From the NCBI GenBank assembly GCA_910583995.1, contig CAJTYW010000001.1, positions 157,366 through 221,365 of the forward strand: 64,000 bases of DNA, given 5' to 3'. The position numbers were made by a program, and so were the translations under genes. A model generated the notes under the pieces. The model did no database searches, was not told the DNA's origin, and saw only the letters and a program-made list of their open reading frames with translations. Positions 50,433 to 57,972 of this stretch are shown one piece after another; the stretch's first letter is position 1; the number at the start of each line of letters is the position of its first letter. This DNA is from an uncultured Christensenella sp. Its GTDB lineage: Bacteria > Bacillota > Clostridia > Christensenellales > UBA3700.

Positions 50433-52058
<1,626 letters not shown>

Positions 52059-52123: not shown

Positions 52124-52148
52124 TCGGGACTATTAAAAATAGTCCCGA
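52124..52148. terminator. bidirectional rho-independent terminator shared by groEL (+) and the trpS-operon tail gene (-)
   Basis: 9-bp stem TCGGGACTA/TAGTCCCGA with a 7-nt loop. T-run downstream on the plus strand, A-run upstream. Confidence 0.8.
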
Positions 52149-52179: not shown

Positions 52180-52887
52180 TTAGGCATCTTTATTGTCACT
52201 ATCGTCTTGCTCGTTATTCACTATACTGCCATTATCATTACTAGAGTCCAAATCTGTGTTATTTTTAAAAATATCATTACTTGAATTATTCTCTTTTTCT
52301 TCTTCACTATTATACATAATGTCATCTGGTGTAGTTGTTTTTGAAGTCTTTTTAATGATTTTGTTAATTATATAAGTAAAGTTTTTAAATATCAAGTGCA
52401 TTAACAAATCATATATCAAAAATAATGGTATACCTGCAAGACTAATTATCAAATAAGTCAATTTAATAGTTTTACCAAAAAGTACAAATGTTGGTATAAT
52501 TGCATTAAATAAAAACCAAAATATTGCGATAATAATTTCAAAATATGCAATTTTAATTGCATAACCGATTGTGTATTTTAAGATTTTACTTTTTATTAAT
52601 TTATAAAGTTTTTGTTCAACTGTCCACTGAATTATTGTATAAGCACCAAAAAATAATATGAATGGCAAAGCATTTATATTACCTATTAAAAAAGCTATAA
52701 TACTTGTAGCAACATAGGATAATATCCCGCCTAACCAATATTTTTGAGTAAGTGGCATTTGAATGCACACTGCTGCCAATACAGCAAAAGATAAAGTCAT
52801 AAATTCCACATAAATAGAACCGACTACACAAATAAGTGCCATTGCACAAGAAATACCTGACAAGGCAATTATATGACTTCTTTTCAT
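52180..52887 (-). CDS. polytopic membrane protein of unknown function with an acidic, N/S/D-rich C-terminal tail
   Basis: 235 aa. About 5-6 hydrophobic helices, then a low-complexity tail. RBS AGGTGA overlaps the end of the upstream J-like gene. Confidence 0.6.
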   Translation of the reverse strand: MKRSHIIALSGISCAMALICVVGSIYVEFMTLSFAVLAAVCIQMPLTQKYWLGGILSYVATSIIAFLIGNINALPFILFFGAYTIIQWTVEQKLYKLIKSKILKYTIGYAIKIAYFEIIIAIFWFLFNAIIPTFVLFGKTIKLTYLIISLAGIPLFLIYDLLMHLIFKNFTYIINKIIKKTSKTTTPDDIMYNSEEEKENNSSNDIFKNNTDLDSSNDNGSIVNNEQDDSDNKDA

Positions 52888-52899
52888 TACTTCACCTTT

Positions 52900-53553
52900 T
52901 TAGCAACAGCTAATCAAATCTCCACCACAGCACTCACAACAAGTGTCACAGCAATACAAAGTGCAGCAAGTATTACAACAAGCATCTGCATTACGTTGAG
53001 AATTGCTCATTTGCGGTTCAGTATAACCGCCTCTGTTTTGCCCATTATATTGTGTACCTGTATTTTGATTAGGATTTTGATTTACAAATGGGTCGCTTTG
53101 TGCCATATCTTCGTTAAGTTTACGAAGAGCTTCGGCATATTTGTAATTTTTAGGCTCCATACTTACACAAATCTCAAGTTGAGTTTTGCTATCACTAAGC
53201 CATTTTTTCTTATAATAAACTATAGATTGATAATAGTGCCATTCAGCATCTCGTGTATCAATACTATCAAGTTTAGATTGAGCTTCAATCAATTTATCTT
53301 GCTTAATAAGGCTACCTACTTCTTCATATACTCTGCTTGAGTCTGCAACAGTAGCTTTATCGTGCAAACTATTTTGACATTCTGTATATGCCCACTCTAA
53401 TTCTTCTAGCTTTCTGATTGCTTCCGCTCCAGCTTCACCTTCAAGAAATCTGTCAGCTTTATATTTATTTTGCAATGTTGTATAAGCATCTTGTAATTCT
53501 GCAAAAGTTGCATCTTCACTGACACCTAAAATCAAATACGGATTTTTTTGCAA
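52900..53553 (-). CDS. J-like domain protein with TPR-like middle region and C-terminal cysteine string
   Basis: Best start is TTG 53553 behind GGGAGGAAAGG. The ATG at 53604 has no RBS and lies inside the upstream gene.
- J-domain helices NPYLILGV....A...EL..AY..L..KY, but HPD is replaced by KAD.
- TPR-like AEWHYYQSIVYYKKKW...MEPKNYKYAEAL.
- Q/N-rich linker.
- Final 26 residues CCNTCCTLYCCDTCCECCGGDLISCC (12 Cys as six CC pairs). Confidence 0.75.
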   Translation of the reverse strand: MQKNPYLILGVSEDATFAELQDAYTTLQNKYKADRFLEGEAGAEAIRKLEELEWAYTECQNSLHDKATVADSSRVYEEVGSLIKQDKLIEAQSKLDSIDTRDAEWHYYQSIVYYKKKWLSDSKTQLEICVSMEPKNYKYAEALRKLNEDMAQSDPFVNQNPNQNTGTQYNGQNRGGYTEPQMSNSQRNADACCNTCCTLYCCDTCCECCGGDLISCC

Positions 53554-54407
53554 TTTCCTTTCCTCCCTAAAACATCTTGTGTTCTCATCAATATGCCATA
53601 CCATAAAATATTGGTTATAGCACCTTCATTAAATTTGAGCTCAATATTTTTATACGCATTTTTAATTGCGTTATAACTTGACATTAACAAAAATTCAAGT
53701 TCTTTACCTTTATCTTCAAAAAACTTATCTTGATTTTGATAATTATACCCTACAAAAAATGGATTAAACTCTTTGTTTTTAAAGTCTTTTTCTACATCGT
53801 CGACTGCATCAATAATATATACCCACTTGCCTAAGTAGTAAAACATATTTTCTATATCACTACTGCATTTATCGCCAAGTACACTTTTTACCGACTGACT
53901 TAGCATATTTGCAAACGGGTCTGCAAGCATATCAATACTAAAAGTCCCCTGTTTTTCCATATCACGCAATCTTTCATATTCACTAGCAAAAAGATTGTCA
54001 AGTTCAGGAAAATTCTTTTTAGCTTTTTTGTATTTGCCACTAACAACTAAACTTCTTGCAAGGCTTTTTGCAATATCTGCCTTTTTGCTATCTAGTTTAT
54101 CGTCAAGCAATTTATAATACATAAGCAACGTATTAATATCAACAACTTTATCTGTAAGCTCATCGCCTTTTACAACTGTCTTTTTTTTAGGCGATAAAAT
54201 ACAAGGTTCGTCGTGATATTTAGGAGAAACTTCCATAACAGCGTGACAAAACATATCAAAAAATACCATATCATAGTTGGTGCTAATTCTCATTAATTGT
54301 CCGCAATCTATACCAATTCGCTTACAAAGTCCACAATAATACGCTTTGTAATTATAGTAGTCTTTCATAAACATATTCATTTTGTCAGGTATTACATATC
54401 CGAACAT
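53532..54407 (-). CDS. conserved hypothetical protein (DUF5685-like by memory)
   Basis: 291 aa. N-terminus MFGYVIPDK....K.YY.YKAYYCGLCK.IG..CG...R...NYD. Asp-rich IIDAVDDVEKD later. ATG overlaps the trpS stop (TAATG). Confidence 0.6.
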   Translation of the reverse strand: MFGYVIPDKMNMFMKDYYNYKAYYCGLCKRIGIDCGQLMRISTNYDMVFFDMFCHAVMEVSPKYHDEPCILSPKKKTVVKGDELTDKVVDINTLLMYYKLLDDKLDSKKADIAKSLARSLVVSGKYKKAKKNFPELDNLFASEYERLRDMEKQGTFSIDMLADPFANMLSQSVKSVLGDKCSSDIENMFYYLGKWVYIIDAVDDVEKDFKNKEFNPFFVGYNYQNQDKFFEDKGKELEFLLMSSYNAIKNAYKNIELKFNEGAITNILWYGILMRTQDVLGRKGNCKKIRI

Positions 54408-55405
54408 TATAGTTGTACCAATCCAACTTTTTTATAAACTTTTCTTAGAGTTTTGCGAGCAATGCTAGATGCTTGTTCTTGTCCGCGTTTAGCAATAGCC
54501 ATAAGTCCTTCTTTGTCCTTAATTAGTTCTTCATATCTTGACTTAATAGGAGCTAAAAGTGTAGCAACACTTGTACCAACCGCTTCTTTTAATGCAGCAT
54601 AAGATAATCCTTGCAATTCTTTAACAGCATTATCAATTGAAATACCTTTGCTACAAGCATAAATAGTTATAAGGTTTGATATACCTGGTTTGTCTTCACC
54701 AAATCTAATCTCATTATCGCTATCTGTTACTGCTCTTTTAAATTTACGCATAATATCGTCTTCGCTATCAAGAATAGAAATTGTCGCATTAGGGTTTTCA
54801 TCACTCTTGCTCATTTTTGCAAGTGGATTTTGCAAGCTCATAATTTTTGCACCGACATTTGAAATAAGTGGTTCAGGAACTGTAAAAGTAGGACTATAAG
54901 CATTGTTAAACCTAATTGCCAAATCTCTTGCAATTTCCAAATGTTGCTTTTGGTCAACGCCTACTGGCACAAGAGATGTGTTATATAGCAAAATATCAGA
55001 TGCCATTAAAACTGGATAATCCATAAGTCCCATATTTACATTGTCAGGGTGTTTTAATGATTTTTCCTTAAATTGTGTCATACGACTTGCTTCACCTACA
55101 TAAGTATAGCAATTTAAAATCCAAGTTAGTTCTGCGTGTTCGTGTACGTGTGACTGAAAATACATAATATTCTTTTCAGGGTCTAAGCCACAAGCTAAAT
55201 ATTGCGCAAAAAAAGATAAAGCACGATTCCTAAACTCTGCAGGAACTTGTCTTACTGTTAAAGAATGTAAATCTGCAATACTGAATATACATTGATACTC
55301 TTCATTATTTTGTAATTTTAGCCAATTGGAAAGTGCACCTATATAATTGCCTAAAGTAACTAAGCCTGTAGGTTGAATACCGCTGTAAATAATTTTTTTG
55401 TCCAT
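54407..55405 (-). CDS. trpS: tryptophan--tRNA ligase
   Basis: 332 aa. Class I motifs: HIGH-like (GIQPTG..TLGNYIG) and KMSKS (AKMSKS). Confidence 0.96.
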   Translation of the reverse strand: MDKKIIYSGIQPTGLVTLGNYIGALSNWLKLQNNEEYQCIFSIADLHSLTVRQVPAEFRNRALSFFAQYLACGLDPEKNIMYFQSHVHEHAELTWILNCYTYVGEASRMTQFKEKSLKHPDNVNMGLMDYPVLMASDILLYNTSLVPVGVDQKQHLEIARDLAIRFNNAYSPTFTVPEPLISNVGAKIMSLQNPLAKMSKSDENPNATISILDSEDDIMRKFKRAVTDSDNEIRFGEDKPGISNLITIYACSKGISIDNAVKELQGLSYAALKEAVGTSVATLLAPIKSRYEELIKDKEGLMAIAKRGQEQASSIARKTLRKVYKKVGLVQL

Positions 55406-55436
55406 AAAGCACCTCCAAATTAATATAATTTAGTAA

Positions 55437-55465
55437 ATTATACCATATATTTTAATAAAAGTAAA
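55437..55465 (-). promoter_or_regulatory. sigma-A promoter of trpS (TTTACT-17-TGgTATAAT)
   Basis: Extended -10 lies about 20 nt upstream of the GGAGGT RBS, implying a leader of only about 30 nt. Confidence 0.5.
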
Positions 55466-55612
55466 TAGATTTAAGACTTATTTTATTTATATAGACACAA
55501 ATAGCTTTAATATTGTGTAATTAATTTAAGTTTTTTGCATAATTCGACATTGTAGTTTATATTAAATTAATTAAGCTTAAAAACTATCAAAAATCGGCAC
55601 TAAAACAAAAAA

Positions 55613-55632
55613 TTGTGTGAAATATCACACAA
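55613..55632. terminator. rho-independent terminator after the 45-aa ORF (A-run/T-run flanked)
   Basis: 8-bp stem TTGTGTGA/TCACACAA with a 4-nt loop, flanked by AAAAA and TTTTTTT. Confidence 0.75.
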
Positions 55633-55642
55633 TTTTTTTAGT

Positions 55643-55780
55643 TTAGTCCATCATTTCTTTATATTTGCTTTTCATTTTTTTTGCAAACTTTTTCATTGTT
55701 TTTTCTAATTTACTATCTGACATACACGCATAAGTTGCAATTGCCCCTGCTGCACAGCCAAGCAGAATTCCAACTTTCAT
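55643..55780 (-). CDS. 45-aa small membrane-associated protein (MKVGILLGCAAGAIATYACMSDSKLEKTMKKFAKKMKSKYKEMMD)
   Basis: Not in the ORF track. ATG 55780 is preceded by GGAGGTG at ideal spacing. Hydrophobic Gly/Ala-rich N-half and Lys-rich amphipathic C-half. Has its own terminator 3 nt after the stop. Confidence 0.55.
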   Translation of the reverse strand: MKVGILLGCAAGAIATYACMSDSKLEKTMKKFAKKMKSKYKEMMD

Positions 55781-56026: not shown

Positions 56027-56398
56027 TTATTTACTTTTTTTCTCTCTGTAATCCTCTACAGCTTTTTTAATAGCTTCTTCTGCCAAAACAGAACAATGTA
56101 TTTTTTGTGGTGGCAAACCTTGTAAAGTTTCAACAACATCTCTATTTTTAATATCCAAAGCTTCGTCAAGAGTTTTACCAATTACCATTTGTGTTGCAAC
56201 TGAACTGCTCGCAATTGCCGCAGCACAGCCAAAAGTCCTAAACTTTGCATCAGTTATAACATCATTTTCTATTTTAAGACTTATTTCCATTATATCACCG
56301 CAAGAAGCATTTCCAACTTTGCCAACACCATCTGCATCTTCGATAAAACCAACATTTTTAGGTTCTGCAAATTCTTTCATTACTCTTTCGTTATACAT
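56027..56398 (-). CDS. nifU: Fe-S cluster assembly scaffold protein (IscU/NifU N-terminal type)
   Basis: 123 aa. Three conserved Cys contexts: NASCGD, FGCAAAIASS, KIHCS. Confidence 0.93.
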   Translation of the reverse strand: MYNERVMKEFAEPKNVGFIEDADGVGKVGNASCGDIMEISLKIENDVITDAKFRTFGCAAAIASSSVATQMVIGKTLDEALDIKNRDVVETLQGLPPQKIHCSVLAEEAIKKAVEDYREKKSK

Positions 56399-57581
56399 AT
56401 TTGTTTTCTCCTTTTTTCTTTAAAAATAGTGGTGATAATTCTCTTAAATCATTTACTATTTTTACTAAATTCTCTACGCAATAATCAATCTCTTCTTTTG
56501 TATTGTTTTTACCAAAACTGAATCTTAATGAGCCGTGAGCAAGCTCTATAGCTCTTCCAGTTGCAAGTAATACATAAGAAGGCTCTAAGCTACCTGAAGA
56601 ACAAGCTGAACCGCTTGACACAGAAATTCCTGCCAAATCAAGTCTTAATAGCAATGACTCCCCTTCAATAAATTCAAAGCTAAAGTTTGCATTTGATGCA
56701 AGTCTTTTATCCGATTTAGTGCCATTGTAATACACATTGTCAATTTTGCTTTCAACTTGGCTAACAAAATAATCTCTAAGTTCAGATACATATTTGTTGT
56801 TTTTATCCATATCTCTAACTGCAATTTCAATAGCTTTTCCTAAACCTACAATACCAGGTGTATTCAAAGTACCGGCACGCATATTTCTTTCCTGCTCGCC
56901 ACCTGTCATAAAACTGCCTAATCTTATACCATTACGCCTATATAAAACGCCAATGCCTTTGGGTCCGTAAAACTTATGAGCAGACATTGATAATAAATCA
57001 ATATTCATTTCTTTAACATCAATTTCAACATTACCTATTGCTTGTACGCTATCTGTATGGAAAATGATTTTATTTTCTTTAGCAATGCTACCGATAGTTT
57101 TTATGTCCTGAATTGTACCAATTTCGTTATTTGCAGTCATTACAGATATAAGTACTGTATCTGGTCTTATAGCATTTTTCAATTCTTCAATTGAAATAAA
57201 GCCTTCGCTATCTACTCCTAAAAAAGTTACTTCAGCAAGTCCGTTTTTTTGAAGGGTGTCAAGCGTTTTTATCATAGCTGGATGTTCAATGCAAGTTGTA
57301 ATAATATGCTTACCTTTGTCCTTGTATCCTTCCAAAACTCCACGAATTGCCCAATTGTCAGACTCTGTACCACCACTTGTAAAATAAATTTCACTTGCTT
57401 TAGCACCAATAGCATCTGCAACCTGTCTTCTTGCGATATCTATATATTTTCCCGCTTCCCTACCGTGAAAATGTTGAGAACTACCATTACCATAAACTTC
57501 TGTAAAGAAAGGTAACATTTCATCTAAAACTTCTCTACTTGTAGGTGTTGTAGCGGAATGGTCAAAGTATATTTTATTCAT
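56391..57581 (-). CDS. nifS: cysteine desulfurase (NifS/IscS type)
   Basis: Start trimmed to ATG 57581 behind GGAGGAG. PLP-Lys context SAHKFYGPKG. Active-site loop SSGSACSS. Confidence 0.95.
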   Translation of the reverse strand: MNKIYFDHSATTPTSREVLDEMLPFFTEVYGNGSSQHFHGREAGKYIDIARRQVADAIGAKASEIYFTSGGTESDNWAIRGVLEGYKDKGKHIITTCIEHPAMIKTLDTLQKNGLAEVTFLGVDSEGFISIEELKNAIRPDTVLISVMTANNEIGTIQDIKTIGSIAKENKIIFHTDSVQAIGNVEIDVKEMNIDLLSMSAHKFYGPKGIGVLYRRNGIRLGSFMTGGEQERNMRAGTLNTPGIVGLGKAIEIAVRDMDKNNKYVSELRDYFVSQVESKIDNVYYNGTKSDKRLASNANFSFEFIEGESLLLRLDLAGISVSSGSACSSGSLEPSYVLLATGRAIELAHGSLRFSFGKNNTKEEIDYCVENLVKIVNDLRELSPLFLKKKGENKYV

Positions 57582-57972
57582 TTTCTCCTCCGTCGCAAAT
57601 TTCAATTAATTTCATATTATTAAGAGAATTATTTATTGTATCATAAAGCTTTTGCCAAACAGTATAACATTTACACTTATTTTCACACTCACCAGTTATA
57701 CAATCGACAAATTTCAAATCATCTTCAAGCACTCTTAAAATTTCGCCAACGCTAATATCTTGCGGACTTTTTGCAAGTTTGTATCCACCACCTGCACCAC
57801 GTACCGAAAGTATTAATCCTGACCTTTTTAGTATTGCCATTAGTTGCTCAAGATAAGCTTCAGACGTTTTTGTATTTTCTGCAATTTGAGCTATGCTAAC
57901 TACTTCATCATATTTAACGGCAAGTTCGCACATTGCTTTTAATCCATATCTTGATTTTGACGATAATTTCAT
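57574..57972 (-). CDS. iscR: Rrf2 family transcriptional regulator (IscR-like)
   Basis: Start trimmed to ATG 57972 (MKLSSKSRYGLKAM). wHTH. Cys cluster C..GEC....C consistent with Fe-S ligation. Overlaps the nifS start. Confidence 0.88.
   Translation of the reverse strand: MKLSSKSRYGLKAMCELAVKYDEVVSIAQIAENTKTSEAYLEQLMAILKRSGLILSVRGAGGGYKLAKSPQDISVGEILRVLEDDLKFVDCITGECENKCKCYTVWQKLYDTINNSLNNMKLIEICDGGENE

Follow-up and report, generated by a model that had tools for sequence, protein, structure and literature searches.

Within a 64,000-nucleotide stretch of the genome of an uncultured Christensenella species (contig CAJTYW010000001.1; "the window" below always means this whole stretch), four tightly packed open reading frames (ORFs) lie on the minus strand and appear to form an operon. 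The first is trpS, the gene for tryptophanyl-tRNA synthetase (54407-55405; Pfam tRNA-synt_1b, E=4.2e-69), and it is followed by a gene for a 291-residue protein of the family DUF5685 (53532-54407; PF18937, E=4.6e-69), by a gene for a 217-residue protein that combines a J-like domain, a TPR-like domain and a Q/N-rich linker with a cysteine-rich tail, called the Cys-string protein here (52900-53553, with a TTG start), and by a gene for a 235-residue membrane protein of about six helices (52180-52887). The comparative analysis described here establishes that the trio downstream of trpS is a functional module conserved in Clostridia, and that this module is real, widespread and previously uncharacterised. 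As to what it does, the reading that we favour, tentatively, is that the DUF5685 protein prenylates the cysteine string at the membrane.

The junctions between the four genes are as close as an earlier reading of this DNA, made from the letters alone and referred to below as the sequence-only reading, had described them, with one small correction. The stop codon of trpS and the ATG of the DUF5685 gene have one base in common (TAATG, 54407-54411), and the Cys-string gene does begin within the 3' end of the DUF5685 gene, its TTG (53553-53551) lying 22 nt inside that gene with GGGAGG 8 nt 5' of it. An ATG at 53604 was considered as the start of the Cys-string gene and ruled out on two grounds, the strong ribosome-binding site in front of the TTG at 53553 and the N-terminus MQKNPY of the homologues; this N-terminus is found in most of them, and the database gene call is placed at the same TTG, the resulting protein (P0001, 217 residues), which begins MQKNPY, being identical to that of the window. 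The ATG of the membrane-protein gene (52887) lies 12 nt past the stop codon of the Cys-string gene (52902-52900), and its ribosome-binding site, AAAGGTGA, which had been said to overlap that stop codon, instead sits just 3' of it. A 155-residue antisense ORF opposite the Cys-string gene (52873-53340, plus strand) has no support and is most likely a coding-strand artefact.

The set is framed by a sigma-70-like promoter candidate upstream of trpS (55437-55465, minus strand; TTTACT, a 17-nt spacer and a TG-extended TATAAT, 10/12, a match to the consensus only) and by a strong bidirectional intrinsic terminator (52124-52148; an 11-bp stem containing 5 GC pairs, and runs of T on either strand), which also serves the convergent groEL gene (50433-52058, plus strand). 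No other minus-strand terminators were found between the promoter candidate at 55465-55437 and the terminator at 52148-52124. The promoter-like site and the terminator of the sequence-only reading are both found, but the stronger statement that there is only one promoter cannot be established from the sequence, because promoter-like matches also occur within the genes at the rate expected by chance (37 found, compared to an expected count of 34.5).

The distribution of the module was traced by scanning one genome per GTDB species, which detected a relative of the Cys-string protein in at least 597 species, and the 80 closest loci, from metagenome-assembled genomes (MAGs) of the Christensenellales type, were examined. 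DUF5685 lies directly upstream of the Cys-string gene in all 80, often with overlapping reading frames; the membrane gene lies downstream in approximately 70 of the 80 when a single sequence is used for the search, and in nearly all complete loci when a hidden Markov model (HMM) is used; and trpS lies upstream of DUF5685 in 58. The trio without trpS was found in Clostridium polynesiense and other distant loci, and a scan of metagenomes that took the DUF5685 of C. polynesiense as its seed supplied 80 further loci of Clostridium type, of which approximately 60 contain the trio and none has trpS directly upstream. Distant members with an HPD-type J-domain, those of C. polynesiense and another lineage included, combine DUF5685, a J-domain/Cys-string gene and a membrane protein of 165-180 residues in unrelated neighbourhoods that lack trpS. 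When the neighbouring ORFs of all 160 loci were clustered into gene families, only three families proved to be common to both 80-locus sets (present in 157, 140 and 118 loci), and about 118 of the 160 loci have the membrane gene on the downstream side of the Cys-string gene. Because the families of the trio are the only ones common to the two sets, the trio is the conserved unit and the link to trpS is lineage-specific. The synteny of the three genes therefore extends to related and distant genomes and is independent of trpS, while the description "trpS-coupled", which the sequence-only reading had applied to the module, is true of the window's Christensenellales-type lineage but not of the Clostridium-type loci.

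The composition of the loci also varies in ways that separate the essential parts of the module from the dispensable ones. In about a dozen loci the partner of DUF5685 is split into a protein of 133-145 residues with only a TPR-like domain and a cysteine string of up to 17 Cys, and a second protein in which a J-domain of non-HPD type and a TPR-like domain are joined to a Gly/Asn/Met-rich tail that ends GGGGMC; the membrane gene was not detected in the arrangement with this second protein. In other loci, a J-less TPR and Cys-string gene is followed by DUF5685 and then by the membrane gene (examples of the split and J-less variants are L143 20-457 and 549-1352, L147, L145 80-481 and L154 1617-2021). 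Since the J-less lineages keep the TPR-like domain, the cysteine string and DUF5685, the J-domain is dispensable and the other three constitute the core.

HMM and fold searches identified no characterised family that accounts for the trio, for which the sequence-only reading had known of no assigned function. A role as a defence system was considered and rejected, there being no PADLOC match for any of the three proteins. A literature search for the module, or for a bacterial cysteine-string J protein, returned nothing relevant, and the term "DUF5685" was encountered in one paper only, within a list of domains of C. difficile R20291 (PMC9403866).

The most conserved segment of the Cys-string family is the cysteine string itself, CCNTCCTLYCCDTCCECCGGDLISCC (52903-52980, minus strand), with which the window protein terminates (…CCECCGGDLISCC), and the count given by the sequence-only reading, 12 Cys in the last 26 residues, is accurate. 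The family comprises 154 relatives in a search of 5.8 billion proteins, nearly all of them 195-225 residues long and from Clostridia MAGs, whose database names go no further than "hypothetical protein", "J domain-containing protein" or "molecular chaperone DnaJ". More than 100 homologues keep the tail, the median count being 11 Cys within the last 30 residues, and its richness in cysteine is therefore not due to chance; this conservation also bears out the module as it had been proposed. The family alignment gives the tail consensus CCxxCxxLxCxDCCCECCGGDLISCC, with a terminal -CC in 91 of 118 family members and no invariant Trp, the hydrophobic position before C-x-D being occupied by W, Y, L, I or M. 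Other clades have different, equally Cys-rich and more hydrophobic tails, such as CCQWCCDMLICNALLNCCCNCH. No Pfam family, CYSTM included, was found over the tail.

In the N-terminal part of the protein, residues 21-79 align with the J-domain of E. coli DnaJ, and the alignment places KAD (53452-53460, minus strand) opposite the HPD tripeptide, in agreement with the sequence-only reading. In J-domains HPD lies between helices II and III and is needed to stimulate the ATPase of Hsp70. The match of the window protein to the Pfam DnaJ family (PF00226) reaches 19.4 bits, below the cut-off of 27.8. Across 118 members the tripeptide is HPD in 24 and KAD in 13, the remainder being variable, and in the window's clade a conserved RFLEGEAG follows the variable tripeptide. 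The 24 members with HPD are distant ones that have a KYHPD J-domain and pass the Pfam cut-off (69.4 bits for the protein of locus L115), so that "HPD-less" is an accurate description of the window's clade but not of the family as a whole. Judged from these alignments, the window protein belongs to a family of true J-proteins, as a derived member without HPD, and its domain is by descent a degenerate J-domain. The TPR-like helical domain that follows (53059-53301, minus strand; approximately residues 85-165, with the pattern RDAEWHY…W…S+…QL…P.N.KY) is matched weakly by TPR-type families (Fis1_TPR_C, 19.7 bits against a gathering cut-off of 25.3, for the window protein; TPR_2, 25.7 bits against 27, and TPR_8, also just under its cut-off, for homologues) and precedes the Q/N-rich linker, so that the earlier description of a TPR-like segment and a Q/N linker stands.

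The DUF5685 protein is matched by PF18937 over nearly its full length (residues 1-277 of 291; 233.3 bits, compared to a gathering cut-off of 26.7), and the family is a large one, with 5273 clusters at 50% identity (E<=1e-3), nearly all of them single-domain proteins of approximately 290 residues. An AlphaFold2 model built from 32 homologues (predicted local distance difference test score, pLDDT, 87; predicted template modelling score, pTM, 0.87) is all-alpha save for one beta-hairpin. In a Foldseek comparison of this model with the PDB, about 40 of the top 50 matches are isoprenoid synthases or prenyltransferases; the best is the prenyltransferase MoeN5 (E=2.2e-3, template modelling score, TM, 0.51-0.57, probability 1.0), and further top matches include hexaprenyl and octaprenyl diphosphate synthases, geranylgeranyl and farnesyl diphosphate synthases (GGPPS, FPPS), 2-methylisoborneol synthase and UbiA homologues. 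On the strength of this modest, fold-level match, DUF5685 is predicted to have the fold of class I terpenoid synthases and trans-prenyltransferases, as a very divergent representative of it.

The positions that the family does not allow to vary were determined by scoring invariance over 148 diverse DUF5685 representatives, which are at the median 31% identical to the window protein, and the invariant or near-invariant residues are C25, C28, C69, D102, D106, E151, Y197, D200, D204, D208, N215 and N266. Three of these are cysteines, of which C25 and C28 form a CxxC (54324-54335, minus strand; 146/148 representatives) and C69 (54201-54203, minus strand) completes the three-Cys set in 148/148. The first Asp-rich motif, YKLLDDKLD (residues 98-106; 54090-54113, minus strand, spanning residues 99-106), contains D102 (148/148) and D106 (147/148), which the model places at the C-terminal end of helix 83-106. 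The second, YIIDAVDDVEKD…N (residues 197-215; 53763-53819, minus strand), presents D200, D204 and D208 at i, i+4 and i+8, plus N215; Y197, D200, D204 and N215 occur in 148/148 representatives and D208 in 143/148. In the model the acidic residues of the D102xxxD106 and D200xxxD204xxxD208 motifs are at the ends of two long helices. Class I terpenoid cyclases bind Mg2+ with their DDxxD and NSE/DTE motifs, and the i/i+4 and i/i+4/i+8 spacing of the Asp residues in DUF5685 would, by analogy, match the geometry of that pair of motifs.

At its C-terminus, DUF5685 is disordered (pLDDT <50; 53532-53560, minus strand) and has a conserved basic Cys motif, which is KCKKIRI here and KCxxTRL or KKCKNTTKF elsewhere; in the 80 genome loci the type of this motif tracks the type of the neighbouring Cys-string tail. 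In 16 of the Clostridium-type loci (L088-L167), a gene for a CYTH-domain protein (PF01928, E=7e-24) lies directly upstream of DUF5685 and frequently extends up to or into the start of that gene (for example L114 633-1241 and L118 4411-5001). CYTH enzymes act on triphosphate or polyphosphate substrates, and a link to diphosphate chemistry is conceivable.

The membrane protein, the third member of the module, has no matches in Pfam, NCBIfam or PADLOC, and 15 of its homologues have none in Pfam; the 35 homologues collected are all unnamed. Its few invariant residues are P45, Y58, G81, K112 and D160. The AlphaFold2 model is poor (pLDDT 60). Assignments to the ICMT-like, CaaX-processing or ECF types were considered and are unsupported, there being no Pfam or NCBIfam match and, on this poor model, only Foldseek noise. 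The window protein also has an acidic, Asn/Ser/Asp-rich, low-complexity C-terminal extension (approximately residues 185-235; 52180-52340, minus strand). Most homologues, at about 175 residues, are without this extension; close relatives have it at varying length, as do a few lineages besides, L013 being one.

The mechanism to which these observations point is one in which D102xxxD106, D200xxxD204xxxD208 and N215 of DUF5685 would bind Mg2+ together with the diphosphate group of a prenyl donor, farnesyl diphosphate for example. The probable task of the three invariant cysteines is to bind a metal or to assist in positioning the acceptor. The Cys-string protein would dock via its TPR-like domain and offer its C-terminal cysteine string as the acceptor, one or more thiols of which would become S-prenylated, and the lipidated protein would then sit at the membrane with the six-helix membrane protein, a possible supplier of the lipid donor or a receptor. 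An intact J-domain, in the HPD clade, would bring DnaK to the site; in the window's clade this role would have been lost, with the conserved RFLEGEAG loop in its place. Diphosphate binding, the enzyme-substrate relation between the two proteins, the prenylation of thiols and the membrane location of the module are what we infer; the module, its conservation, the resemblance in fold and the invariant residues are what was observed. The sequence-only reading had listed lipidation, metal binding and disulfide formation as options for the string without choosing among them. Lipidation, and specifically prenylation, is now favoured, although not proven, because of the terpenoid-synthase fold of DUF5685; when an isoprenoid-enzyme fold is combined with the strict pairing of DUF5685 and the Cys-string protein, S-prenylation becomes the most economical mechanism. 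The broader proposition, that Clostridia have a native protein S-prenylation in which DUF5685, as a hitherto unrecognised branch of the terpenoid-synthase fold, lipidates the cysteine string of a dedicated TPR/J protein and so creates a lipid-anchored platform at the membrane, seems to us possible but doubtful.

Several observations weigh against S-prenylation. The structural evidence for a synthase is itself weak, with Foldseek E-values of 2e-3 or higher and TM scores of about 0.5 for a predicted model, and the terpenoid-synthase assignment is by fold and motif only, since no sequence-level link exists: a profile search of PDB sequences with DUF5685 detected no synthase, only designed helical repeats that were judged spurious; hhalign of the DUF5685 alignment against E. 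coli IspA, whose sequence as used is identical to 1RQJ in length and match, gave nothing (probability 0.15); and a Pfam search (E<=10) of 32 DUF5685 members returned only DUF5685, with neither PF00348 nor a terpene-synthase family among the matches. Foldseek found no fold match for the membrane protein, although the model that was searched is the poor one mentioned above. All characterised peptide prenyltransferases that resemble the trans type of isoprenyl diphosphate synthase (trans-IDS) target Trp, not Cys, and the prenylation of Cys is treated as eukaryotic (PMC13290415, a 2026 review), and the tail has no invariant Trp. Finally, the tail, its conserved D, E, GG and D included, has stayed nearly identical across deeply diverged members, a pattern that suits a folded, metal-binding unit no less than a lipid anchor.

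The nearest precedents for the proposed activity are ComQ, PalQ and ChrPC, which are trans-IDS-like enzymes that prenylate peptides encoded alongside them (PMC13290415). The likeness to these systems consists of an isoprenoid-synthase-fold enzyme with two Asp-rich motifs, encoded beside the polypeptide that it would modify, and of the expected chemistry, in which an allylic carbocation would act as the alkylating electrophile (PMC13290415). In contrast to them, DUF5685 has no detectable sequence similarity to these enzymes, has an extra invariant three-Cys site and a beta-hairpin, and belongs to a set that includes a membrane protein, while the acceptor, which is a Trp in a short secreted peptide in the known cases, would here be a Cys string on a cytoplasmic protein of about 200 residues. 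The resemblance of DUF5685 to class I terpenoid cyclases and to MoeN5, which lies in the all-alpha fold and in the placement of DxxxD and DxxxDxxxD at helix ends in the manner of DDxxD and NSE/DTE, is likewise one of fold only (TM about 0.5), and the CxxC…C N-terminal element of DUF5685 is absent from them.

Eukaryotic systems offer further parallels. The cysteine string of the eukaryotic cysteine-string protein (CSP, DnaJC5) is lipidated and anchors the protein to membranes, and the likeness noted by the sequence-only reading, an N-terminal J-domain with a dense cysteine string (here 12 Cys in 26 residues), is genuine, but it is an analogy, not a homology. Beyond the J-domain the two proteins share no homology, the string forms the extreme C-terminus here and is internal in CSP, the window's clade has no HPD, and a TPR-like domain occupies the middle of the protein here; a search of PDB sequences (E<=1) returned no CSP, only bacterial DnaJ, DNAJA1/A3 and SEC63 over approximately residues 18-83, plus weak chance-level matches. 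CSP is palmitoylated by DHHC enzymes, which bacteria are not known to have. Eukaryotic prenylation by farnesyl- and geranylgeranyltransferases (FTase/GGTase), as of the -CC and -CXC ends of Rab proteins, is comparable in that C-terminal cysteines, often a final -CC, would be thioether-linked to isoprenoids, but these enzymes are alpha-alpha barrel heterodimers with a catalytic Zn and thus of another fold, and no genes for CaaX-processing lie at the module, the membrane protein having no match to ICMT or to CaaX proteases in Pfam or, on the poor model, in Foldseek. In the window's clade the J-like domain recalls Pam16/Tim16, in which a J-fold is conserved without HPD, implying a structural or regulatory role, although nothing here indicates that the domain pairs with a partner that has HPD, and the RFLEGEAG loop is family-specific.

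The same observations can be accommodated by other explanations, and these differ in which of them they leave unexplained. If the cysteine string were a metal-thiolate or Fe-S unit, comparable to a metallothionein or a cluster carrier, which the TPR and J parts deliver or protect and in whose metal or cluster handling DUF5685 is a three-Cys partner, then the 7-12 Cys per 30 residues arranged as CC and CxC pairs, the conserved acidic residues and GG, the near-identity of the tail across clades that are about 30% identical elsewhere, and the invariant C25, C28 and C69 of DUF5685 would all be accounted for, as would the location of iscU/iscS-like genes just upstream of trpS in the window; J-proteins are known in Fe-S assembly, HscB being an example. 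We nevertheless regard this explanation, the main rival of S-prenylation, as on the unlikely side, because it leaves the terpenoid-synthase fold and invariant Asp motifs of DUF5685 unexplained, because the different and more hydrophobic tails of other clades speak against one fixed metal site, and because the isc genes are not conserved beside the module in relatives, for which reason an Fe-S link drawn from that neighbourhood was rejected. The fold and the Asp motifs would be explained if DUF5685 made a small lipid or modified a membrane lipid, with the Cys-string protein as its regulator or chaperone instead of its substrate and the conserved membrane partner handling the product, and MoeN5, the best structural match, does act on a lipid and not on a protein (PDB entry 5b02, title); this scheme, however, gives no role to the conserved cysteine string, and a direct partnership is in better accord with the strict adjacency, the frame overlap and the retention of the string in members that have lost the J-domain, so that we hold the scheme to be quite unlikely.

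A third explanation treats the tail as a membrane-inserting or membrane-binding anchor, of CYSTM type or a site of S-acylation, and the protein as a membrane-tethered recruiter of DnaK, comparable to DjlA, with the membrane protein or DUF5685 as its clients. The bona fide J-domain of the HPD-clade members (69 bits), the constant proximity of the membrane protein and the fair hydrophobicity of some tail variants are all in accord with an anchor of this kind, but the tail of the window type has a conserved D, E and D, its mean Kyte-Doolittle hydropathy, calculated by hand for 19 residues, is about 0.9 and thus under the threshold normally applied to transmembrane segments, and Pfam gives no CYSTM match. 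Because HPD has been lost in 94 of the 118 members and some members are J-less, the recruitment of DnaK cannot be the core function, and we consider the explanation as a whole improbable. Lastly, the genes might be unrelated neighbours with nothing in common but an operon with trpS. Small genomes often do mix functions in their housekeeping operons, and the window alone would be compatible with this view, but three genes that stay together in 160 loci, in very different neighbourhoods and without trpS, make it scarcely credible.

The module is very common, with 5273 DUF5685 clusters and a Cys-string protein in the genomes of at least 597 species, yet no study of it was found, and its carriers include many gut Clostridia, among them abundant gut Christensenellales with small genomes. 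If S-prenylation were to prove correct, the module would give bacteria their first counterpart of both the Cys prenylation and the cysteine-string proteins of eukaryotes, and it would provide a new route of protein lipidation in bacteria, a new enzyme family for biocatalysis and a function for a large DUF, by means of a chemistry new to bacteria, whose known isoprenoid-synthase-like peptide prenyltransferases are all Trp-directed (PMC13290415). The idea is directly testable, since the candidate enzyme and the substrate proposed for it are products of adjacent genes. Should the tail bind metals instead, it would still represent a new kind of cysteine-cluster protein in anaerobes.

Some minor features lie upstream of the four genes. 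T-box leaders are common for aminoacyl-tRNA synthetase genes in Firmicutes; an Rfam search (E<=1) of the region upstream of trpS (55406-55640) found neither a T-box nor any other element. Farther upstream is a 45-residue ORF with a hydrophobic N-terminus (55643-55780, minus strand), followed by a long AT-rich hairpin terminator (55638-55607), over which there is a sub-threshold Rfam match to Spd-sr37 (26.6 bits, compared to a cut-off of 45) that is probably just the terminator. The isc-like genes, identified by translation, are two ORFs at 56027-57605 (minus strand), just upstream of the trpS promoter region, for an IscU/NifU-like protein (123 residues) and a cysteine desulfurase-like protein (404 residues); relatives usually carry threonine synthase and a small P-loop protein upstream, not isc-like genes.

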